IMG/VR virus record: IMGVR_UViG_3300031578_000122
Span: 1 to 42,437 of that record
Reading direction: 5' to 3' (one strand)
Origin: a virus
Length of the DNA: 42,437 nucleotides
Shown here: positions 247 through 8,524 of the stretch, in pieces
Position numbering within the stretch: the stretch's first letter is position 1
Layout of the letters: each line of letters begins with the position of its first letter
Position numbers and translations under genes: made by a program
Notes under the pieces: generated by a model
Told to the model about the DNA's origin: nothing
The model's input: the letters and a program-made list of their open reading frames with translations, nothing else
Database searches by the model: none

Positions 247-417
247 ACAAAATTCAGCTTTGAAATGACAGTGATTTTTATTATATTTACAGTGCTTAAT
301 CAAATGCAATGCAAATATCAATTTGAAAAAATACCGGATATGGATTTCATGCAGGAAACTGTATGGAGCGGTTTCTGCATTGCAACCGTTAAGCATCCTA
401 AGTCCGGTTCTTTTATT

Positions 418-945
418 ATGGAAACCTGGAAAAATATTAAGGGGTATGAAGGACTTTATCTTGTGTCAAATTTAGGTAGAATAAAGAGCCTTAAAAGACA
501 ACGAATAAGAAAAATAGCAACAACAAGAATCGGTTATTGTGTGGTGAACTTGAGTAAAGATGGAATTAAGAAGTTAAAAACTGTACACAGGCTTGTTGCA
601 TTAGCTTTTGTGCCTAACCCAGATAATAAACAATGTATTAATCATAAAGATGGGAATAAACTAAATAATAAGATTGAGAATTTGGAGTGGTGTACTCATT
701 CTGAAAACAGTAAACATATGGTTGAGGTTTTGGGTATTAAGCCCCATTTAGGAAAGAAGCACCCCGAAGAAACGAAAAGAAAAATAGGATTTAAGAATTC
801 TAAGTTGACGCTGAATGATATATTGACGATAAAGAAAAGATATGAGTCCGGAGCAACACAGGTTGCGCTTGCGAAGGAATATGATGTACACTATGTTACT
901 ATAAACAACGTAATTAACGGCAGACAACTTGCCAGATTTAATTAA
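418..945 (+). CDS. HNH homing endonuclease (NUMOD4-type N-terminus, HNH_3-type core, C-terminal HTH)
   Basis: METWKNIKGYEGLYLVSNLGRIKSL is a typical NUMOD4 N-terminus. CINHKDGNKLNNKIENLEWCTHSENSKH is the HNH core. The C-terminus (ATQVALAKEYDVHYVTINNVING) looks like a DNA-binding HTH. The track ORF begins at 265, but family members normally start at the M-E-x-W-K motif, so 418 is preferred. Confidence 0.8.
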   Translation: METWKNIKGYEGLYLVSNLGRIKSLKRQRIRKIATTRIGYCVVNLSKDGIKKLKTVHRLVALAFVPNPDNKQCINHKDGNKLNNKIENLEWCTHSENSKHMVEVLGIKPHLGKKHPEETKRKIGFKNSKLTLNDILTIKKRYESGATQVALAKEYDVHYVTINNVINGRQLARFN

Positions 946-1820: not shown

Positions 1821-2239
1821 CAAAGGATGATTTTGGCCGGTTCATCCCGGCTTATGGTACTGACTTTGACCTGGCCAAGCGCATAAAGGTTGGGGAAACT
1901 GTCAAGGCTGTCGTCACCAGGCCCCGGAATTACGGCTTTCATAAGAAGTATTTTGCCATGATTAGATGTTTCCATCACTGTTTGCACGAAGAACTTGCTG
2001 ACAGGTATCCTACCAGGGACTCCCTCCTGGTGGCAATTAAGATCCTGGCCGGGCATTTCGATGTAAGTTTCCTTCCGGATGGCACCGAGGTACAGATCCC
2101 GAAGTCAATATCATTTGGGGCAATGGATGATTATGCATTCGAAGAATTTTATTCCCGTACCCTGGACATTGGATTAAAATATTTTTTGCGGGACATGGAC
2201 AAGGAGGAATTTGAACAGGAGATTTTGAATTTCCTGTAA
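1805..2239 (+). CDS. DUF1367-like phage protein
   Basis: TRPRNYGFHKKYFAMIRCFHHCLHE resembles the SRNPAFHRKVFAFFNFCF signature I recall for DUF1367 proteins of lambdoid nin regions. The track ORF starts at 1778. The ATG at 1805 (MDLYLTKDD) gives less overlap. Confidence 0.5.
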   Translation: MDLYLTKDDFGRFIPAYGTDFDLAKRIKVGETVKAVVTRPRNYGFHKKYFAMIRCFHHCLHEELADRYPTRDSLLVAIKILAGHFDVSFLPDGTEVQIPKSISFGAMDDYAFEEFYSRTLDIGLKYFLRDMDKEEFEQEILNFL

Positions 2240-2252
2240 TTCATTATATTTG
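2224..2252 (+). promoter_or_regulatory. Bacteroidota-type promoter (TTTG -33-like box plus TATATTTG -7 box)
   Basis: TTTG lies at 2224..2227. TATATTTG at 2245..2252 matches the TAnnTTTG consensus, 17 nt downstream, directly after the stop of the DUF1367-like gene. Confidence 0.45.
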
Positions 2253-2263
2253 TTTATTCAATG

Positions 2264-2296
2264 CCGGGATCGTTAAAAAGCGATTTCGGTTTTTAT
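2264..2296 (+). terminator. Hairpin plus T-run (intrinsic terminator-like) upstream of the transporter gene
   Basis: ccgggatcg (2264..2272) pairs with cgatttcgg (2281..2289), with two G-U pairs. The hairpin is followed by tttttatt. Confidence 0.45.
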
Positions 2297-2316
2297 TCAC
2301 CTAATCCATTTTAATT

Positions 2317-3729
2317 ATGCAGGTTTTTTCAAGTTCGCAGGGATGGCTGATTATTGTATCATACTTTGCTATGGTCATGGTTTTAGCATACCTGTACAGC
2401 TATCGTGACAAAATTCGCACGAAGCTGAGTTTTCTTGTAGCGAACCGCACTGTATCAGGATGGCCGGCAGCCTTCTCCATCGCAGCCACCTGGATATGGG
2501 CACCCGCTTTATTCATTGCGTCTGAGAAGGCATTTACGCAAGGGATTGCAGGGGTGTTCTGGTTTACGGTTCCAAACATTCTCTGCCTGGCAGTATTCGG
2601 TTTTTTTGCTACCAGGATGCGGAACATGGTTCCTGAGGGGTGGACCTTCTCGGATCATATCCGGACTTCTTACTCAAACCGGACTCATAACCTCTACCTG
2701 GTGGAGTCATTCGGTTTACAGATTTGCTCCTTTGCCGTTCAATTGTTAGCCGGTGGAGCAATTCTGCATAAATTGACAGGGATCCCGTTTTTCTGGACTA
2801 CCCTGGCAATGGCTGTTATCCCATTTGTCTATACATACCTTAGGGGTATAAAGGCCAGTATAATGACTGACCTATGGCAAATGGCATGGATAATTTTAGT
2901 ACTGGTATTGATCCTTCCACCGATATTGGGCCATTCCGGTGACCTGGTTAAGGGCCTGGGTGGATCGAGCGGAACCTTTGATAATTTATTTGGTAAAACG
3001 GGGTGGCTGGTGTTCCTTTCCTTTGGGATACCGGCAACGGTGGGATTATTCTCCGGCCCCTTTGGTGATCAAATGTTCTGGCAGCGGGTATGGTCCATCA
3101 AGAAGAAGGATGTCAAGAAAAGTTTTCTTCATGCCTCCTGGATCTTTGGGATAGTACCCATAGTTCTGTCCACCCTGGGATTTATTTATGCCGGTAGCGG
3201 GGCTGTGAATGTGGATACACAGTTAACCAATGTCCAAGGCCTTATGATGATCACACCAAGTAGATTAATCCTTGTGCTTTTCATGTTTATGATCCTTTCC
3301 GGGCTGATATCAACCTGTGATTCTGTGATATGTGCCGTGTCCTCAGTGGTTGGACATGATATTGCCGTGAGGATCCAGGAGAGAAATATTAACAGGAAGG
3401 TTAAGCCGGTAGTTATTGCCAGAATGGCAATGGTACTGGTTACTATCCTGGCAATATGTATAGCCAACATACCAGGTATCAAAATTTTGTACTTGTGGCT
3501 ACTTTACGGGACTCTGAGATCGTCTGTACTCCTTCCGACTATCTACGCTATCTTAAAAATCAGGATGAGTGAGAAGGGCTTATTTTACGGCATTTTGATT
3601 TCAATAGTCCTGGGGGTACCGATGTTTGCCATTGGCAAATTTGGCAATCATCTTCCCTGGATACTGGCCGGTACATTTACAACCCTGTTGGCCTCAGGAA
3701 TTATATCACGACTAAAATTTAAAACATGA
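2317..3729 (+). CDS. Sodium:solute symporter (SSS) family permease, substrate unknown
   Basis: A 470-aa polytopic membrane protein with about 12-13 hydrophobic segments. The N-terminal region is SSS-like (LVANRTVSGWPAAFSIAATWIWAPALFIASEKAF). GIKASIMTDLWQ matches the conserved G..a...tD..Q segment of the family. Confidence 0.8.
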   Translation: MQVFSSSQGWLIIVSYFAMVMVLAYLYSYRDKIRTKLSFLVANRTVSGWPAAFSIAATWIWAPALFIASEKAFTQGIAGVFWFTVPNILCLAVFGFFATRMRNMVPEGWTFSDHIRTSYSNRTHNLYLVESFGLQICSFAVQLLAGGAILHKLTGIPFFWTTLAMAVIPFVYTYLRGIKASIMTDLWQMAWIILVLVLILPPILGHSGDLVKGLGGSSGTFDNLFGKTGWLVFLSFGIPATVGLFSGPFGDQMFWQRVWSIKKKDVKKSFLHASWIFGIVPIVLSTLGFIYAGSGAVNVDTQLTNVQGLMMITPSRLILVLFMFMILSGLISTCDSVICAVSSVVGHDIAVRIQERNINRKVKPVVIARMAMVLVTILAICIANIPGIKILYLWLLYGTLRSSVLLPTIYAILKIRMSEKGLFYGILISIVLGVPMFAIGKFGNHLPWILAGTFTTLLASGIISRLKFKT

Positions 3730-4343
3730 AAAAACTAATCATTATCTCCACTATCCTCTTGGTGAGCCTGGCCGTTAATGCCCAGGTTTATGATGGGATA
3801 ACACAACCTATGAAGTACCGGTTCTGGACCGGTGCAAACTCTAACGGTACGACCTTCAGTTTTGCTGGATATAAGGTTGCACCCAACGCTACCCCCTGGC
3901 TGTCCCTTACGGGTGTCACTTGGTACACTTGGCACAACAAGCAGTTTTCCACTATGCTCTGGACTAATCTGAACTACAAAAAGCAGTTCTGGTTTCTTCA
4001 CCGGGTAGGCTATAATACATTCAGCAAGAAATTCTACCAGACGTACTCCGGAACATGGAAGGCACCAAATAATTTTATGGTAGATTTCACCTGGTCAAAT
4101 ATATGGAAACAGGATGCCGGGTGGCTGGACGGGGATCAACTTCAGTTCCTTGCCGGATATAAGTATAAAAGCCTTATTGTACTCAATGCCGGGTACCGGG
4201 TGATAGGTAATGGGCAGGAGGGGTTTATAACAAATTTCAGGTTGATGTTCAATAAGGGTGAAGATGTAACCAACTGGTTGCAGATGAAATATGATTTTAC
4301 CAACAGGGTGTTTGGATTGAACGTCGCATTTCATTTTAATTAA
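3726..4343 (+). CDS. Secreted aromatic-rich protein, probable small outer-membrane beta-barrel
   Basis: The start overlaps the permease stop (ATGA). It has a Sec signal peptide, MKKLIIISTILLVSLAVNA|QVYDG. About ten short alternating hydrophobic/aromatic stretches are present (FSFAGYKV, LTGVTWYTW, MLWTNLNY, FMVDFTWS, LQFLAGYKY, LIVLNAGYRV, FITNFRLMF, WLQMKYDF, FGLNVAFHF). The C-terminus is aromatic. Confidence 0.55.
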   Translation: MKKLIIISTILLVSLAVNAQVYDGITQPMKYRFWTGANSNGTTFSFAGYKVAPNATPWLSLTGVTWYTWHNKQFSTMLWTNLNYKKQFWFLHRVGYNTFSKKFYQTYSGTWKAPNNFMVDFTWSNIWKQDAGWLDGDQLQFLAGYKYKSLIVLNAGYRVIGNGQEGFITNFRLMFNKGEDVTNWLQMKYDFTNRVFGLNVAFHFN

Positions 4344-4349
4344 TATTCT

Positions 4350-4370
4350 GAGGGGGCCATGCGCCCCCTC
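4350..4370 (+). terminator. GC-rich hairpin closing the transporter cassette
   Basis: gagggggc (4350..4357) pairs perfectly with gccccctc (4363..4370) around a 5-nt loop. Only a weak T tract follows (tt). Confidence 0.45.
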
Positions 4371-4379
4371 TTAACTACT

Positions 4380-4955
4380 ATGGCAAAAAAGAAATTCTCC
4401 CACAAGGAGATAATAGTTCCTGTCTCAGAACTCAAGGAATTCCCCGGTAACCCAAACAAACATCCGGAGCCTCAGATCCGGGCTATGGCTGAGAACATGA
4501 AACGGTTCGGCCAGTACCTACGTATTATTACTGATGAAAATTACCTAATCCTTTCAGGTCATGGGAAAAAGAGATCCCTGGAACTTGCCGGTATGAAGGA
4601 GGCTAAGATCAATATGATATCCGGTATGTCTGAGATTGAAAAGAAGGTATTGCTCCTTGCTGATAACCGTATCCAGGAAATGAGTACCATCCATATGCCT
4701 GACCTTGAGGCGATAATAAAACAGGCAGCCACCCTGGACATACCAGGCTTTTCCCAGGATTATATTGACTCTGTAATAAATGAACTCACCAGGGACAATT
4801 ACGGGGTGGATCTCCAGGCTGACATGAATGGCCTCGGGCTTAACAGCCAGGGTCCAGGAGTGGTCGGGCAGATTGACCAGGACACTAACCCTGAGAAGGG
4901 AAAAGTATATAAAGAGATTGAATGCCCATACTGCAAAAACCGATTTGAGATATGA
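4380..4955 (+). CDS. ParB-like nuclease (ParBc) domain protein with C-terminal zinc-ribbon
   Basis: ParB N-terminal domain pattern: LKEFPGNPNKHPEPQIRAMAENMKRFGQYLRIITDENYLILSGHGKKRSLELAGMKEAKI. The C-terminus ECPYCKNRFE looks like a zinc ribbon. The track start at 4359 lies in the hairpin loop, so the ATG at 4380 is preferred. Confidence 0.7.
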   Translation: MAKKKFSHKEIIVPVSELKEFPGNPNKHPEPQIRAMAENMKRFGQYLRIITDENYLILSGHGKKRSLELAGMKEAKINMISGMSEIEKKVLLLADNRIQEMSTIHMPDLEAIIKQAATLDIPGFSQDYIDSVINELTRDNYGVDLQADMNGLGLNSQGPGVVGQIDQDTNPEKGKVYKEIECPYCKNRFEI

Positions 4956-5482
4956 AGGATCTATTTACCCCCTTAAAGAATATTCAATTTGTTGATAGGG
5001 ATACCCTCAAAGCAAATGATTACAATCCTAATAAGGTACTGGAAAGAAACCTTGAATTACTTGAGAAGTCCATCCTCAGTAACGGCTTTTGTTTTCCCCT
5101 GGTGGTAAGACAGGACATGACAATCATTGATGGTTTTCACCGGTGGCTGATAGCAGGGAGAGATCCCCTAAAAACACTCCTGGGGAACAAGGTACCTATA
5201 GTTATTGTCCAGCATGAAGATAAGGCCAAGGATGTTTATGGGACCATAACATTCAACCGGGCCCGAGGCACTCACCTACTGGAACCTATGGAGCGGATAG
5301 TCCAGGGGCTATTGAAGGACGGTAAGACCGTGAAAGAGATCAGCAACCACCTGGGGATGCGCCCTGAAGAAGTGTACCGGCTTACAAAAATGGACAGGGA
5401 GGCATTTCTCAATATCATGCTTAAGGGTGAGAAGATCCCCTCCCGGGCGAGGAAGATAACGAACACCAGGCAAACGTCATGA
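4952..5482 (+). CDS. ParB/IbrB-like domain protein
   Basis: ParB/Srx-fold core: LKANDYNPNKV...SILSNGFCFPLVVRQDMTIIDGFHRW. A C-terminal HTH-like segment follows (KTVKEISNHLGMRPEEVYRL). ATGA overlaps occur at both ends. Confidence 0.65.
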   Translation: MKDLFTPLKNIQFVDRDTLKANDYNPNKVLERNLELLEKSILSNGFCFPLVVRQDMTIIDGFHRWLIAGRDPLKTLLGNKVPIVIVQHEDKAKDVYGTITFNRARGTHLLEPMERIVQGLLKDGKTVKEISNHLGMRPEEVYRLTKMDREAFLNIMLKGEKIPSRARKITNTRQTS

Positions 5483-6573
5483 TACGTCAGGTTTACTTAA
5501 AAATAAATGTTTTTACAGCAGCCAGGAAAAGGCTTATAAAGTTCTTCCAGGACTACCCCGTACTTTTCTTTTCATACTCCGGAGGGAAGGACTCAGCGGT
5601 GGTCAGTCACATGATCAGGGGCCTGATCAATGAGGGGCTTATTGATCGAAGTAAACTGCTTGTGAACTTCTTCGACGAGGAAGCTATTTACCCTTGCGTT
5701 GAGAGAGTGGTCCTACAGGAGAGAAATGAGTATTTGAAATTGGGGGTGAAGTTTTACTGGTGGTGCCTGGAATTCAAGCATTACAATTGCCTCAACCAGC
5801 TAACCAGTGATGAAACCTTCATCTGTTGGGATGCCAGGAAGAAATCAGTCTGGTGTAGGCCCAAACCGGAATTTGCATTAAACTATCACAGGGACTTTAA
5901 ACTCGGTATGAATTACCAGACCTGGTCAGACAGGGCCTTTGGAAAGTATTACAATATTATAGGAATACGGGCCAATGAATCTGTCCAGCGGTTATCTGCA
6001 TTCAGTAAGATTGTCAAGAACACCCCGAAGGTGCTTTATCCTATTTATGATTGGAAGTTAAAAGACGTGTGGTTGTATATAAAGAAGTACCAAGTGCCCA
6101 TCCCTGACGCTTATATGTACCTGTATAAGGTAGGGGTGTCCGGTGAGGCGTTACGTATAAGCCAGTTCTTCAGCATCGATACAATACGGAGCCTACCCAA
6201 GGTGTTTGAATTCTACCCAGGCCTGTATGAATCTATTCTCAAGCGTGAACCTAACGTTGAACTGGCAGCCCTCTACTTTGAAACTGATATGTTCCGGTCA
6301 ACTAAGCAAAATAAGAAATTCAAAAAGGAGGATGACTATATCGGTAAGTTCAAAAAGGAATTTTCGAGAGCAATTCAACACCCTGACTCATTCCCTGGTT
6401 TTTATAATGCTAAGTTTTTACTCAGAACAATACTATGGGAGGATCCCGTTGCATATAAAATGATGTATCAGATCCTGGTGGCCGGTGATCCAAAGAACAG
6501 ACTTACCAGGTCATGTCAGATGCATATCTCGGGTAAACACTCCCTTGCTAAAGAAGTAATGGAGCGTCCATAA
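5479..6573 (+). CDS. PAPS-reductase-family PP-loop protein, IbrA-like (with DUF3440-like C-terminal region)
   Basis: PP-loop motif SYSGGKDS. The downstream pattern is PAPS-reductase-like (IGIRANESVQR, PIYDWKLKDVWLYI). The extended C-terminus (RISQFFSID...YPGLYESI) is consistent with the DUF3440 extension seen in IbrA-type proteins. Confidence 0.7.
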   Translation: MIRQVYLKINVFTAARKRLIKFFQDYPVLFFSYSGGKDSAVVSHMIRGLINEGLIDRSKLLVNFFDEEAIYPCVERVVLQERNEYLKLGVKFYWWCLEFKHYNCLNQLTSDETFICWDARKKSVWCRPKPEFALNYHRDFKLGMNYQTWSDRAFGKYYNIIGIRANESVQRLSAFSKIVKNTPKVLYPIYDWKLKDVWLYIKKYQVPIPDAYMYLYKVGVSGEALRISQFFSIDTIRSLPKVFEFYPGLYESILKREPNVELAALYFETDMFRSTKQNKKFKKEDDYIGKFKKEFSRAIQHPDSFPGFYNAKFLLRTILWEDPVAYKMMYQILVAGDPKNRLTRSCQMHISGKHSLAKEVMERP

Positions 6574-6576
6574 ATT

Positions 6577-7125
6577 ATGTCTAAAGGTGAAAAAGGCAAA
6601 GGAGGCAGGCCCCCCGTCGAACTCGATGAGAGGCAGAAGCAACTTGTATTGTACTATGCCAGGAATGGAGTTCCGACAAAGCATCTCGCTGAGTTACTGG
6701 GTATTTCGCGTTCCGCCTTTTATAATATTCTCCGCAGAGATCCTGAGGTTTATGCACTTTATAGACAGGGTGTCCTTCTTGCGAATGTTGCTGTCAGTAA
6801 TTGGCTGTTTGAATCTTGCAAGCCGGTGGTCAAGCAAATACCATTGATAGATGCTGACGGCAACCAAGTTATAGATCCAGGAACCGGTGAACCAAAGTTC
6901 TATGAACAGGTAGTACAGCGGGGATCTATTGAGGCTCAAAAGTTCTGGCTCCGGACACGGGCAGGATGGAAGGACCGGTTCTATATTGAGCATACTCCAC
7001 CGGTAGAGGATGATGATTTAGATGAACTTGAAATTTTACCAGATGAGGACATTAGAACCATCGTTGAAATTGGTCGAAAACTGGAAGGCTTACGAGAGGA
7101 AGATCGCGAGGAAATATCTGATTGA
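6577..7125 (+). CDS. Terminase small subunit (putative)
   Basis: N-terminal HTH (VPTKHLAELLGISRSAFYNIL) and an acidic C-terminus. It sits immediately upstream of, and overlaps, the large terminase. Confidence 0.6.
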   Translation: MSKGEKGKGGRPPVELDERQKQLVLYYARNGVPTKHLAELLGISRSAFYNILRRDPEVYALYRQGVLLANVAVSNWLFESCKPVVKQIPLIDADGNQVIDPGTGEPKFYEQVVQRGSIEAQKFWLRTRAGWKDRFYIEHTPPVEDDDLDELEILPDEDIRTIVEIGRKLEGLREEDREEISD

Positions 7126-8524
7126 GTTTATCCAGTACATGAAACCGGGGCTGGCATATCGCGCTCAATGGTTTCATAAGGTTATCTGTGAGAAAATAGA
7201 TGCATTGATCCGTGGAGATTTTTACAGGTTGATGATCTTTACACCCCCGCAACACGGAAAATCTGAAATTGTATCCAGGATGCTCCCAGCCTTTCTCCTG
7301 GGTCTGGATCCTGATACCAAAATGACGGTGGCCTCCTATGCTCAATCCCTGGCCAGGCAATTTAACCGTGAAACTCAAAGAATAATTGACAGTGAACGTT
7401 ACCGGGCCATATTTCCAAGGAGCATACTTGCCGGCATGGACACTATTGATACAGACAGTTTCCGGTCAGTGACCAGGACGGCCAGTGCATTTGAAATGCA
7501 TGAGGCCTTAGGAGGGCTTGTGAGTGTAGGTGTGGGGTCAGGCCTTACAGGTAGGCCAGTGGACTTCGGGATAATAGATGACCCCGTAAAGGACGCTGAT
7601 CAGGCCTACAGTGAAGTTTACCGGGATAAAGTATGGGAGTGGTACACTCACGTCCTTAAAACCAGGCTACACAATGAGAGTAAAATTGCATTCACAATGA
7701 CCAGGTGGCATGATGATGACCTGGCCGGTAGAATAGAGAAGATTCAGGATGAAAGCGAAGAACGCTGGGAAACGATTATTTTCCCAGCTATAAAAGAAGG
7801 CCCCCCTAATCAACATGATCCTCGCTATGAGGGTGAGGCCCTATGGGAAGAACGACACTCAGCAAAGAGAATCCTGGCTGTGAAGAAAATTTCAGAAAAG
7901 GTATTCAATTCCCTGTATCAACAGGTCCCGGCCCCGAAGGAAGGGAACCGTATTAAGGAAAAATGGTTCGGGAGGTTTTTACTTAGTGACCTGGAACACC
8001 GGGCCTATGATCATGACAAGGAAATCATTTGGGATTTTACAATAGATGGAGCATATACTGACAAGGATATTAATGATCCTACTGCAATTCTGGCCTTCTG
8101 CAGGATCTTTAATTGCATGTATGTCCGGGAGGTGGCTGTGGTAAGGATGGAAATGCCTGATCTTTTACGTTTCATACCTGAATTTGTATATCGAAATGGA
8201 TATAAGGAAACTTCCCGTATATGGATTGAACCTAATGCCTCCGGCAGATCAGTGGCGCAGATGGTAAAGGCAAATACCAAATTAAATATTATAATTGATA
8301 AGGCCCCGGAGATAAGCAAGGAGGCCAGGGTAGAGAAGTGTTCCCCTTACATGGAATCGGGTAGGGTGTTCCTGCTTGAGGGAGGATCCTGGGTAAATGA
8401 CTATCTTTATGAATTAAAAATGTTTTCCAACACCAAGCACGACGACCAGGTGGATGTTACCACGATGGCCATTGACAAGGACTTTGACTTTTCATCTGAA
8501 ATATATGACATGGCTACTATTTAA
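7022..8524 (+). CDS. terL: Terminase large subunit
   Basis: Walker A-like TPPQHGKSE and Walker B FGIIDDP. MTRWHDDDLAGRI is present, and the C-terminal nuclease motif is KHDDQVDVTTMAI. The start is uncertain: 7022 or 7043 overlap terS, and the next ATG is at 7139. Confidence 0.9.
   Translation: MNLKFYQMRTLEPSLKLVENWKAYERKIARKYLIEFIQYMKPGLAYRAQWFHKVICEKIDALIRGDFYRLMIFTPPQHGKSEIVSRMLPAFLLGLDPDTKMTVASYAQSLARQFNRETQRIIDSERYRAIFPRSILAGMDTIDTDSFRSVTRTASAFEMHEALGGLVSVGVGSGLTGRPVDFGIIDDPVKDADQAYSEVYRDKVWEWYTHVLKTRLHNESKIAFTMTRWHDDDLAGRIEKIQDESEERWETIIFPAIKEGPPNQHDPRYEGEALWEERHSAKRILAVKKISEKVFNSLYQQVPAPKEGNRIKEKWFGRFLLSDLEHRAYDHDKEIIWDFTIDGAYTDKDINDPTAILAFCRIFNCMYVREVAVVRMEMPDLLRFIPEFVYRNGYKETSRIWIEPNASGRSVAQMVKANTKLNIIIDKAPEISKEARVEKCSPYMESGRVFLLEGGSWVNDYLYELKMFSNTKHDDQVDVTTMAIDKDFDFSSEIYDMATI

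Follow-up and report, generated by a model that had tools for sequence, protein, structure and literature searches.

What do three overlapping genes do that end directly in front of the terminase genes of a virus? The question was addressed for a locus in the window, the whole 42,437 nt stretch of viral DNA analysed, in which the ORF list places g1 (4359/4380-4955), g2 and g3 on the + strand (Table 1). Direct reading of the sequence located ATGA overlaps between g1 and g2 at 4952-4955 (GATATGAAGG) and between g2 and g3 at 5479-5482 (GTCATGATAC), and the three genes are predicted to be translationally coupled. The stop codon of g3 (6571-6573) is separated by 3 nt from the terS start at 6577, and the terL ORF as called overlaps terS by 104 nt. 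The trio sits where the replication module gives way to the packaging module. This arrangement agrees overall with a preliminary description made from the sequence alone, in which two details required correction: the zinc ribbon assigned to g1, and the extent to which g3 matches DUF3440.

Table 1. Features of the locus and the matches that define them.
Feature	Position	Strand	Product length	Evidence
Terminator-like hairpin and T-run, between ninB and the symporter gene	2263..2295	+		12-pair stem, T-run
SSF (sodium:solute symporter family) inner-membrane transporter	2317..3729	+	470 aa	PF00474 8e-21 (74.8 bits, cut-off 22.8); phrog_20720 7e-103; TIGR00813 2.7e-29
X, secreted, predicted KdgM/NanC-type small porin	3726..4343	+	205 aa	Signal peptide; AF2; Foldseek
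Perfect 8-bp GC hairpin/palindrome, GAGGGGGC-CATGC-GCCCCCTC, between X and g1	4350..4370	+		-17.7 kcal/mol, z -2.4
g1 (ParB1)	4380..4955	+	191 aa	phrog_620 2.6e-28; phrog_498 2.5e-22; PADLOC MTase_II 2.5e-7
g2 (ParB2; IbrB/YbdM-like)	4952..5482	+	176 aa	PF02195 2.1e-6; phrog_2159 1.9e-57; YbdM E 4e-24
g3 (IbrA/YbdN-like)	5479..6573	+	364 aa	PF01507 5e-9; phrog_2302 4.5e-69; YbdN E 5e-26
Small terminase subunit, terS (context)	6577..7125	+		phrog_309 7.8e-14; HTH_23 2.3e-7
Large terminase subunit, terL (context)	7022..8524	+		phrog_38 7.4e-96; Terminase_6N/6C

The g3 product is predicted to be a PP-loop ATP pyrophosphatase of the PAPS-reductase fold with a helical C-terminal domain. The SGGKDS PP-loop (residues 34-39) and a G-x-R-x-x-E-S-x-x-R motif (G162-R164-E167-S168-R171) are invariant in 53 homologues, a comparison in which neither a single cysteine nor an Fe-S-type Cys set is conserved across the family. 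A CysH-type AMG, reducing PAPS to sulfite and boosting host sulfur assimilation, is the common reading in virome papers, and it has on its side the PF01507 match and the PHROG label 'phosphoadenosine phosphosulfate reductase'. However, the conserved C-terminal catalytic Cys motif (E-C-G-L-H) is missing, and the SCQMH found near the C-terminus in the window is not kept in homologues. On g3, the NCBIfam models for cysH, PAPS_reductase and APS_reductase reach only 12-17 bits (cut-offs 154-254), the intact PP-loop is of the kind that binds ATP, and an obligate ParB-like partner has no place in sulfate assimilation. A sulfur AMG is contradicted by the g3 sequence and is essentially excluded. The preliminary description had already judged sulfate assimilation unlikely and such genes often misread, and the literature agrees that sulfur-AMG readings of such genes are routinely made without evidence.

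The long C-terminal extension described earlier amounts to ∼140 extra residues and includes a conserved GDPK motif in the helical C-terminus. It had been linked to DUF3440, but only the first ∼50-70 residues appear to be related, and remotely so. The BLASTP alignment with E. coli YbdN (PAPS_reduct+DUF3440) runs 48 residues into its DUF3440, and the g3 C-terminus alone aligns to DUF3440 in hhalign (probability 79%, E 1.5e-5), but the Pfam DUF3440 model does not match g3 even at E≤10. Foldseek matches of the AF2 model (pLDDT 83) are NcsA, PAPS/APS reductase, CysD, LarE, FMNAT, GMP synthetase and TilS, and the C-terminal domain has no structural match. Together with the invariant motifs and the lack of a conserved cysteine, the matches to adenylating enzymes mark g3 as an ATP-type PP-loop enzyme and not a reductase. 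No DNA-binding or base-flipping domain was recognisable in g3. Matches to BrxP (4e-7) and DndC (2e-3) are weak, and with 15.6 bits the DndC model stays well short of its cut-off of 290.

The g2 product is a ParB-fold protein with an HTH tail, as first described. Its score against PF02195 ParB_N is 28.1 bits (cut-off 26.3), the motifs NDYNPN, DGFHR and NRARGxH are invariant in the ParB N-domain, and the HTH occupies approximately residues 111-145. The g2 profile is colinear with the ParB N-domain and DNA-binding domain in the PDB (4umk, 7e-7); the C-terminal dimerisation domain is absent. It shares 36% identity with E. coli YbdM, the RefSeq 'IbrB-like domain-containing protein', and has 1246 representative homologues at E≤1e-3, as well as weak matches to SerK. 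Copies from phages of Bacteroidota and Firmicutes are 60-70% identical.

The g1 product begins with a ParB N-terminal (ParB/Srx) domain, continues through a helical region and a low-complexity linker, and ends in a single CxxC knuckle. No Pfam match was obtained in profile searches, and its best label is phrog_620, 'ParB-like'. It aligns to the N-terminal positions 30-171 of the 633-position DNA-methyltransferase profile phrog_498 and to positions 18-151 of 436 in PADLOC MTase_II, most of its tblastn relatives are N-terminal parts of phage proteins annotated as DNA methylases, and its profile matches the Spo0J/Noc N-domain in the PDB (4.5e-6). The domain belongs to a clade normally fused to phage DNA methyltransferases, and the same profile searches found no methylase domain in g1, both as previously noted. 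The CPYC end also stands, but a four-Cys zinc ribbon is rejected, since C182 and C185 are the only cysteines and form a single knuckle; the motif I-x-C-P-x-C-G is kept in Bacteroidota and Firmicutes homologues. The start at 4380, chosen earlier, is probably the true one, because ATG 4359 sits in the loop of the GAGGGGGC/GCCCCCTC hairpin and the alignment with homologues begins at 4380. In Box II, g2 (DGFHR) and g1 (SGHGKKR) deviate from the CTPase GERR motif, and clamp-like loading can therefore not be assumed for either protein.

The unit extends further upstream, to a symporter and a porin, an extension that the preliminary description had missed. The cassette of Bacteroidota-type relatives includes an SSF transporter, a predicted porin and often a second PP-loop protein (Y), and the window carries the first two (2317-4343), which alters the picture of possible enzyme substrates. 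PutP and PanF models fall far under their cut-offs on the SSF protein. X had no Pfam or PHROG match in profile searches, but its AF2 model, built from 4 sequences (pLDDT 73.5, pTM 0.67), has 12 meander strands, and Foldseek against the PDB returned KdgM 4fqe (TM 0.58/0.67), NanC 2wjr, VhGalP and designed 12-strand barrels. X is a secreted protein whose signal peptide is followed by a predicted outer-membrane beta-barrel of 12 strands, resembling the KdgM/NanC small porins. The SSF gene lies directly 5′ of the ParB/IbrA genes in contigs L005-L010, L015-L020 and L025, and in the six contigs L005-L010 X is fused behind SSF in a single 762-aa ORF. Ahead of the hairpin in front of the symporter gene lies TATATTTG (2246-2253), a putative promoter on the basis of its match to the Bacteroidetes -7 consensus TAnnTTTG. 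The palindrome between X and g1 occurs as one exact copy in the window, has no T-run, and may act as an attenuator, stabilise RNA or serve as a binding site for a protein.

The distribution of these genes was surveyed in 50,697 phage records. Homologues of g3 and g2 were counted in 222 and 227 records, respectively, with equal numbers in Flavobacterium (90/90), Mycobacterium (60/60), Streptococcus (21/21), Arthrobacter (12/12) and Bacillus (8/8); in E. coli, ybdN and ybdM are likewise neighbours (ybdNM). The g2-g3 pair forms the obligate core, and g1 is a frequent accessory. The assignment of this pair to the ibrA/ibrB type holds, as both proteins match their E. coli counterparts (Table 1) and the phage homologues are annotated IbrA/IbrB, 'co-activator of prophage gene expression'. 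The trio was found in phages of three phyla, mostly next to terminase genes, and the arrangement is beyond chance because it recurs in many independent phage lineages. Terminase neighbours were seen in the window, L001, L005-L019, L025, Kamiyu and Hendrix; adjacency is common and recurrent, with exceptions in S. thermophilus phages, Gaia and L022. A methyltransferase separates the trio from terS in Salgado, and SNF2 or other helicases lie directly upstream in 1H, D4276 and Gaia. The order SSF-X-(Y)-ParB1-ParB2-IbrA is found on differing backbones (Terminase_6 versus Terminase_3, SPP1- versus Mu-type portals), which reflects mobility of the cassette.

The position next to terS/terL in most lineages examined could mean that the trio is a packaging or DNA-processing accessory, in which the ParB-like proteins recognise or nick DNA near pac/cos and help terminase while g3 turns over nucleotides. 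This takes the ParB-like 'nuclease' domains as the nicking activity. Two arrangements would suit it: FCV-1 has the pair inserted between terL and the portal gene, and the genome of Microbacterium phage Hendrix starts with ParB2 and finishes with IbrA, so that its two ends fall within the module. However, the pair is also found at a distance from packaging genes and in bacterial chromosomes that have no terminase, and its association with unrelated terminase families makes a specific terminase interaction unlikely. Neither a nuclease motif nor a metal site was found, and the transporter, amidotransferase and cupin partners would have no role. This account is considered highly improbable.

A transcriptional role would also suit the location, as the region directly upstream of terS is the usual site of phage late activators. 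Here g2, like the ParB-family regulators VirB and KorB, would load close to where the packaging/late operon begins, activating or de-silencing late (or prophage) genes, with g1 and g3 as accessories. The co-activator annotation of the homologues, the prediction of YbdM as a transcription factor, the HTH of g2 and the unique palindrome just 5′ of g1 are in keeping with this. It leaves no role for the invariant ATP-pyrophosphatase site of g3, a second PP-loop enzyme, the GATase and cupin fusions or the porin and symporter, and several phages carry the pair among replication/helicase genes, at a distance from the late operon. In FP_Taranis, a RinA-like activator is already encoded upstream. Moreover, g2 including its HTH remains 60-70% identical in phages whose hosts have unrelated, very different promoter types, which favours a general DNA- or enzyme-directed role over a promoter-specific factor. 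A co-activator is regarded as unlikely.

Fusions of ParB2 give further indications of function. Class-II glutamine amidotransferase::ParB2 fusions are present in P0169 and P0175 (GATase_6, 2e-9), and in P0169 (L022), the sole context examined, the fusion adjoins IbrA(+DUF3440) and a second PP-loop protein. Phage Gaia encodes an ectoine-synthase cupin::ParB2 fusion. Deletion chimeras fuse SSF, a transporter or Y straight to ParB2, which places these genes adjacent to it, and FP_Taranis has a different multi-pass membrane protein at the SSF/X position. These features, with SSF and porin kept immediately upstream on differing backbones, could be explained by a small-molecule pathway whose final target is not DNA. 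The porin and SSF would import a solute, a ParB/Srx-fold protein would phosphorylate it or bind nucleotide (compare SerK, sulfiredoxin), and g3, with Y in relatives, would adenylate it in the manner of FMN adenylyltransferase or CysD, to yield a nucleotide-activated metabolite for host takeover, counter-defence or virion decoration. The presence of FMNAT and CysD among the fold neighbours of g3, the SerK matches of g2 and the fusion to small-molecule enzymes (GATase, cupin) are consistent with this. Against it, g2 retains a full ParB-type HTH DNA-binding domain, g1 falls in the methyltransferase-associated ParB clade, most pair-bearing phages and E. coli ybdNM have no transporter, and the helicase, methylase and terminase neighbours are unexplained. 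Such a pathway is doubtful.

In the trio, the widespread YbdN/YbdM (IbrA/IbrB) two-protein system occurs in a phage copy, with a second ParB-fold protein added. The reading preferred here, tentatively and at somewhat short of an even chance, is a ParB-guided, ATP-dependent DNA-modification module that acts before packaging. Both ParB-like partners point to DNA, g2 by the colinearity of its N-domain and HTH with ParB and g1 by its kinship to methyltransferase N-termini, and the neighbours are DNA enzymes (terminase, methyltransferase, helicases). The obligate pairing of g2 and g3, the ATP-type PP-loop of g3, the GATase and cupin fusions of ParB2, the conservation of g2 between Bacteroidota and Firmicutes phages and the mobility of the cassette also speak for this reading. 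In the proposed scheme, g2 and g1, the latter possibly dimerised via its terminal CxxC, would bind replicated phage DNA in a nucleotide-dependent manner and recruit or activate g3. Using ATP through its PP-loop, g3 would adenylate an oxygen function, either of the DNA itself or of a precursor later transferred to DNA, and a nucleophile would displace AMP to leave a covalent mark. In some lineages the nucleophile would probably be ammonia from the glutamine amidotransferase fused to the ParB partner, whereas here and in Bacteroidota-type relatives a solute taken up through the phage porin and symporter may serve as the nucleophile or as its source. The location at the replication/packaging junction suggests that the mark would be laid just before packaging, plausibly for protection from restriction-type defences in the next host. 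The analysis itself yielded the homologies, motifs, gene order, co-occurrence, fusions, missing CysH/DndC hallmarks and predicted porin fold; the DNA substrate, chemistry, use of an imported solute, timing and protective role are what we infer. The interpretation in the preliminary description is partly supported: the pair is of the ibrA/ibrB type, g3 is not a CysH and the three-component form recurs beside terminase, whereas the suggested activity on phage DNA stays a proposal.

We know of no modified base, DNA-binding assay or enzymatic activity for any YbdN/YbdM (IbrA/IbrB) family member, nor of a DNA modification matching ybdNM, which are core genes of E. coli K-12, although CitR represses that operon (PMC9068703). 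The only phenotype reported is transcriptional, IbrAB being said, in work by Sandt et al. in 2002, to activate prophage eib genes. The tight porin/symporter link could equally mean a purely small-molecule pathway and counts against DNA modification, as do the lack of a recognisable DNA-binding or base-flipping domain in g3, its structurally unmatched C-terminal domain and the deviating Box II residues of g1 and g2. The amidation idea for g3 is drawn only from the fusion partners, whereas the chemistry of the family (CysD, FMNAT, DndC) centres on phosphate or sulfate oxygens. The gene pair was already known; the function proposed here is inferred from partners, fusions and precedents.

In several precedents a ParB-fold protein works alongside an enzyme that modifies DNA. 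One DNA thymine dioxygenase depends on a phage ParB-like protein for its activation on dsDNA (PMC13229309), the ParB-like ATPase DpdB is required for DNA transglycosylation by DpdA in the 7-deazaguanine system, and DndB works with DndC. DndC (phosphorothioation) and BrxP of BREX type 4 share the PAPS-reductase fold with g3, and a Vibrio phage PAPS-domain::Dam fusion permits escape from Dnd restriction (10.1101/2021.05.05.442762). However, the window contains no cysteine desulfurase, DndD/E, TGT or dioxygenase, and since the DndC model falls far under its cut-off and no Fe-S-type Cys set is conserved, the chemistry of g3 probably differs from that of all these systems. According to a 2025 survey, ParB_N::DNA-methyltransferase fusions are typical of phages, are often encoded immediately ahead of the packaging genes and presumably act on phage DNA. 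The ParB domain in g1 falls in the same clade but is not joined to a methyltransferase, and the operon supplies a separate PP-loop enzyme instead.

GMP, NAD and asparagine synthetases pair a PP-loop adenylating enzyme with a glutamine amidotransferase, resembling the GATase::ParB2 fusion beside IbrA and Y in L022, and Gat-QueC of phage 7-deazaguanine pathways is likewise an amidotransferase-coupled PP-loop enzyme. The GATase is, however, fused to the ParB partner rather than to the PP-loop enzyme, and is absent from the window. KdgM/NanC porins function with a cognate inner-membrane sugar-acid transporter, as NanC does with the sialic-acid transporter, and X, whose modelled barrel is nearest to KdgM, NanC and VhGalP, is likewise encoded with a symporter; it differs in being phage-encoded and in having no KdgM-family sequence similarity. 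The closest relatives of the pair, E. coli YbdN/YbdM and IbrA/IbrB, are also two-gene units, adjacent or overlapping, with the same PP-loop, DGFHR and NRARG motifs. In contrast, g3 in the window lacks most of DUF3440 and has its own helical C-terminus with GDPK, g1 is present as a third partner with porin and symporter upstream, and the pair is phage-borne beside terminase, whereas ybdNM is a chromosomal operon repressed by CitR (PMC9068703).

The ~42 kb window is essentially a whole phage genome, and its + strand holds nearly all genes. Replication and recombination genes predicting a Sak4-like annealase, an exonuclease, an initiator, a DnaC-like loader and SSB occupy 33-41 kb, and this set resumes at the beginning of the window, where the genes for an HNH endonuclease and NinB lie. 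With replication genes on the 5′ side and the terminase (terS and terL) and structural genes on the 3′ side, the trio formed by g1 and g2, which predict the ParB-like proteins ParB1 and ParB2, and g3, which predicts an IbrA-like PP-loop protein, sits exactly at the early/late junction. Direct reading of the sequence confirmed the ATGA overlaps at 4952 and 5479 by which the preliminary description had linked the three genes, that of g2 and g3 being 4 nt, and the end of the trio 3 nt before terS. The cassette matches its surroundings in G+C content and thus gives no hint of recent acquisition.

Positions of the trio, its neighbours and related features in the window and in other phages or contigs
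Feature	Sequence	Position	Strand	Comment
NUMOD4/HNH endonuclease region	window	265-945		seen in positions 1-1200
-7 box-like and terminator-like element	window	2246-2295
Two membrane-related genes (SSF and X)	window	2317-4343	+	ORF list
SSF, symporter gene	window	2317-3729	+
X, porin-like gene	window	3726-4343	+
SSF/X overlap	window	3726-3729		ATGA-type
GC hairpin	window	4350-4370		between X and g1
Trio g1-g2-g3	window	4380-6573	+
g1 (ParB1)	window	4380-4955	+
g2 (ParB2, IbrB/YbdM-like)	window	4952-5482	+
g3 (IbrA/YbdN-like)	window	5479-6573	+
terS and terL	window	6577-8524	+	followed by structural genes
terS/terL overlap as called	window	7022-7125		different frames
SSF-X fusion	L005-L010	3831-6119		six metagenomic contigs
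Y, second PP-loop protein	L005	6121-6903
Y	L015	5057-5857
Y	L020	~1900-2700	-
Y	L022	7219-8001
Y	L025	2326-3108
GATase::ParB2	L022	8001-9152
Cupin-ParB fusion, gp104	Gaia (L027)	4614-5513
Helicase-IbrA-IbrB block	D4276 (L013)	1981-5762

The assignment of g3 and g2 to the ibrA/ibrB type was borne out by matches to E. coli YbdN (E 5e-26) and YbdM (E 4e-24, 36% identity), the latter named 'IbrB-like domain-containing protein' in RefSeq. In tblastn searches of 50,697 phage records, g3 matched 222 and g2 matched 227 with near-identical taxon counts, and the two genes are an obligate pair. HMMER found 1246 relatives of g2 at E<=1e-3 among 1.84 billion representatives, and a pattern scan of IMG/VR with g3 returned a single, weak locus. 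The trio is found in phages from three phyla, Bacteroidota, Firmicutes and Actinobacteria, and its gene order varies, being ParB1-ParB2-IbrA in the window, Riemerella phage PJN03 and many metagenomic contigs, and ParB1-IbrA-ParB2 in FP_Taranis, MT836198, mycobacteriophage Kamiyu and Arthrobacter phage Salgado. Identities across phyla are 60-70% for ParB2, 34-52% for the IbrA-like protein and 26-42% for ParB1. Outside phages, 5379 of 5426 complete E. coli genomes carry ybdNM, which is repressed by CitR (PMC9068703). One record, OR845499.1 ('Escherichia phage ECO95 1-6-1', 2297 bp), matches chromosomal ybdL-ybdM-ybdN of E. coli at ~75% identity across 94% of its length and probably represents a piece of enterobacterial chromosome, not phage DNA.

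The g2 gene predicts a protein of 176 aa that matches PF02195 (28.1 bits, cut-off 26.3) and aligns colinearly with solved ParBs across their N-domain and DNA-binding domain, in agreement with the ParB fold and HTH tail described from the sequence. NDYNPN, DGFHR and NRARG-x-H motifs are invariant, and the C-terminal dimerisation domain is missing. ParB1 (191 aa) begins with a ParB N-domain, which a linker connects to one conserved C-P-x-C-G knuckle. Its N-domain is that of the phage DNA-methyltransferase clade (phrog_498, 2.5e-22, profile positions 30-171 of 633) and its tblastn matches sit under annotated methylases; methylase profiles are matched in the N-terminal part only, as expected for the proposed methylase-type ParB domain that lacks the methylase. 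The CxxC claimed for this protein is conserved, but the zinc ribbon was not upheld, since two cysteines are insufficient to make one; by analogy with the Rad50 hook, the CxxC may form an inter-subunit zinc site. Against the PDB, g1 and g2 gave weak matches by single sequence and profiles were needed. A word-based search recovered 2 homologues of g1 and 4 of the porin-like X, so both families are thinly sampled. Neither protein is a canonical ParB (ParABS CTPase). Box II reads DGFHR in g2 and SGHGKKR in g1 instead of GERR, TIGR00180 scores 23.4 against a cut-off of 58.45, the proteins stop after the HTH or CxxC, and no ParA partner gene was seen among the ORFs of the window.

The start of g1 is most likely at 4380, because an ATG at 4359 lies in a hairpin loop and homologues align from 4380. 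This hairpin, a perfect 8-bp GC palindrome (GAGGGGGC-CATGC-GCCCCCTC; -17.7 kcal/mol), is unique and lacks a T-run. The database gene call for g1 (198 aa) begins within its loop. There is no second good copy of the palindrome in the window, and hence no parS-like array was found.

The g3 product (364 aa) matches PF01507 (PAPS_reduct) at 5.1e-9 (36.8 bits, cut-off 22.5); the SGGKDS PP-loop noted earlier is invariant among 53 sequences, and a G-x-R-x-x-E-S-x-x-R motif is invariant in the family. PAPS-reductase-like genes are among the most often reported 'auxiliary metabolic genes' of viromes and are usually read as sulfur metabolism. However, the NCBIfam CysH, DndC and CysD models score g3 an order of magnitude under their cut-offs, and assignment as a CysH PAPS/APS reductase was rejected (TIGR02057 13.1 vs 254.2, TIGR00434 12.8 vs 165.1, NF002537 17.1 vs 154). 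The catalytic C-terminal Cys of CysH (E-C-G-L-H), the absence of which had been proposed as a check, is indeed absent, and SCQMH (346-350) of g3 is not kept in homologues. That g3 is a CysH-type sulfur gene is extremely improbable, and the sulfur reading is untenable for this large subfamily because an ATP-type PP-loop enzyme is locked to a ParB-like DNA-binding partner.

A DndC/SspD/BrxP-type phosphorothioation enzyme was also rejected (TIGR03183 15.6 vs 290.4); the PADLOC matches to DndC (2e-3) and BrxP (4e-7) each cover only ~50 residues, and no cysteine desulfurase, DndD/E or BREX core genes were detected in the window ORF list or in scans of selected proteins. Cys96, Cys104 and Cys116 are kept only in the Bacteroidota-type subgroup and are missing from the FP_Taranis and Flavobacterium-phage (1H) homologues. 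An Fe-S or persulfide mechanism is thus not common to the g3 family.

A single-sequence search of the PDB with g3 gave no match. Foldseek comparison of its AF2 model (pLDDT 83) returned only the general adenine-nucleotide alpha-hydrolase fold, represented by NcsA, PAPS/APS reductase, CysD, LarE, FMN adenylyltransferase, GMP synthetase and TilS, at query-normalised TM scores of 0.3-0.4 that reflect a generic PP-loop fold. With no Foldseek structural match to the C-terminal domain, the model gives no substrate clue. DUF3440 (PF11922) was not matched in g3 by Pfam search at E<=10 and is matched by 1 of the 53 family members. The BLASTP alignment with YbdN enters its DUF3440 for 48 residues, and hhalign of the g3 C-terminus alone against the DUF3440-bearing group, using independent sets, gave a probability of 79% (E 1.5e-5) over 70 columns. 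The remaining ~70 residues of the extension are unrelated to DUF3440 and are subfamily-specific, with a conserved GDPK-x-R motif.

Placement beside the terminase, at first described for this genome, holds in most lineages with all three proteins, either directly or within one to three genes, but not in S. thermophilus phages, Mycobacterium phage Gaia or contig L022, where helicases adjoin the pair. A function of the trio as a packaging accessory, as its position in the terminase-linked lineages might suggest, is quite improbable. The reported activation of prophage eib genes by IbrA and IbrB is a genetic phenotype only. A co-activator of late genes would fit both the IbrAB annotation and the place 5′ of terS; it would leave the enzymology and the transporters unexplained and is considered unlikely. 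In Microbacterium phage Hendrix (L029, H77), the linear record closes with IbrA, annotated as 'adenylyltransferase', and opens with ParB2, after which come two further ParB-like genes and terL, so both genome ends lie within the module. The helicase-IbrA-IbrB block of Streptococcus phage D4276 lies directly 3′ of the anti-CRISPR gene acrIIA5, an anti-defence neighbourhood.

The cassette extends upstream to the symporter gene SSF (PF00474 74.8 bits, gathering score 22.8; phrog_20720 7e-103), for which no substrate-specific NCBIfam model reached its cut-off. SSF is directly 5′ of the ParB genes in every Bacteroidota-type contig retrieved via close g3 homologues, on backbones with differing terminase and portal families, and also in MT836198, which is alone among GenBank phage records in carrying a close homologue of the window SSF. 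An exception is the isolated Riemerella phage PJN03, which has the trio and no SSF match. MT835682, with a distant SSF and no trio within the 9 kb available, is uninformative on this point. FP_Taranis carries a multi-pass membrane protein in the SSF position, and hhalign did not relate this transporter (gp35) to SSF (probability 6%). SSF and X are translationally coupled by their overlap. X predicts a protein with a signal peptide and a 12-stranded barrel closest to the small porins KdgM and NanC. Its AF2 model, built from 4 sequences, has 12 strands at a moderate pLDDT of 73.5, and Foldseek against the PDB gave TM scores of 0.58/0.67 for KdgM and 0.57 for NanC with 8-9% identity in the structural alignments; X had no Pfam or PHROG match and was not placed in the KdgM family by sequence. 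Just 5′ of the SSF start, TATATTTG fits the Bacteroidetes -7 box consensus, with a terminator-like hairpin and T-run within 10 nt on its 3′ side; this element may act as a leader/attenuator, or may be no more than the ninB terminator. Rfam and tRNA scans of the whole window gave no match.

Together, SSF and the predicted porin X would form a complete two-membrane uptake route. A porin- and symporter-fed small-molecule pathway fits the transporter link, and is unlikely, if a little less so than late-gene co-activation. Also unlikely is nutrient-dependent DNA hypermodification, in which a solute imported by the phage would be put on phage DNA by a YbdN/YbdM (IbrA/IbrB) catalytic core. The KdgM/NanC-like porin and SSF would import an exogenous small molecule during infection, one or more ParB-guided PP-loop enzymes would use ATP to activate it and would join it to phage DNA ahead of packaging, and lineages that lack the transporter would instead take ammonia from a fused glutamine amidotransferase. 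In the six contigs where SSF and X are fused in one 762-aa ORF, the joint is a ~110-residue coiled-coil-like linker with an internal signal-peptide-like segment ending ...HAQ|VYDGITQP. Such an architecture is unusual in an outer-membrane barrel; it implies that the product is cleaved internally or has another topology. A further gene, Y, which is absent from the window, recurs in the cassette of Bacteroidota- and Actinobacteria-type phages and predicts a ~260-aa protein, the second of the PP-loop type (WSGGKDS, GRRxxDGN; phrog_424 1.7e-18).

Fusions to ParB2 were accepted where the joined domain is complete. P0169 and P0175, two g2-family representatives, each have at the N-terminus a complete class-II glutamine amidotransferase (GATase) domain, and the P0169 contig (L022; phage-like, 67% G+C) contains, in this order, three ParB1-like genes, a cupin, IbrA with DUF3440 and Y, followed by the GATase::ParB2 gene. 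In Gaia, gp104 joins an ectoine-synthase-type cupin (PF06339 1.3e-32) to an IbrB-like ParB and adjoins gp103, an IbrA with full DUF3440, and the helicase gp102. PP-loop enzymes that work with a glutamine amidotransferase, as known for GMP, NAD and asparagine synthetases, typically act by adenylating a carbonyl or carboxyl oxygen, which is then replaced by nitrogen. By analogy with this chemistry, the GATase::ParB2 fusions make an amidation-type step plausible in at least some lineages; for the window, itself without an amidotransferase, we can only infer such a step. P0128, P0129, P0138, P0147 and P0149, in which a transporter, SSF, Y or terL is joined to ParB2, were rejected as true fusions because the junctions fall inside domains, and were counted as evidence of adjacency only, not as Rosetta stones. 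In P0065 the Y N-terminus leads into IbrA, with the junction at the SGGKDS motif that both share. All six resemble products of deletion within the cassette, which may stem from degraded prophages or be artefacts of assembly.

On homology and synteny, the reading tentatively preferred, at a little under an even chance, is that the trio performs a ParB-guided, ATP-dependent modification of DNA before packaging, in line with the activity on phage DNA first suggested. It is favoured by partners that bind DNA or are associated with DNA enzymes, by neighbours that are themselves DNA enzymes, by a conserved active site and by direct precedents for ParB-fold activators of DNA-modifying enzymes. A phage PAPS-domain protein that defeats Dnd restriction also points this way, namely a Vibrio phage PAPS::Dam fusion that allows escape from Dnd (10.1101/2021.05.05.442762). 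JSS1_004, considered as the Dnd-evading phage PAPS reductase, was rejected because it is a kinase.

The pair is known and widely annotated (IbrA/IbrB, or 'PAPS reductase' and 'ParB-like'), and its near-terminase position is visible in many deposited genomes, so the system is not new in kind. In the literature searched, no description was found of strict pairing statistics for g2 and g3 homologues, of the methylase-type ParB1 as a recurrent third component, of the porin, symporter and second PP-loop extension, or of amidotransferase and cupin fusions to ParB2. The methylase-type ParB, Y, the GATase and cupin fusions and the porin with its symporter lead from 'function unknown' to specific experiments in culturable phages, and the phage function, once found, would also explain the core operon ybdNM of E. 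coli and the old IbrAB phenotype. A DNA mark, if confirmed, would define a new enzyme class for phage DNA modification and add a further case of ParB-fold loaders for DNA-modifying enzymes.

Two further features of the window were seen. The NUMOD4/HNH endonuclease region has a G+C content of 0.33-0.36, compared with 0.41-0.48 in the rest of the examined region, consistent with a mobile homing-endonuclease insertion. As called, terL overlaps terS by 104 nt in another frame, and its true start may be further downstream.
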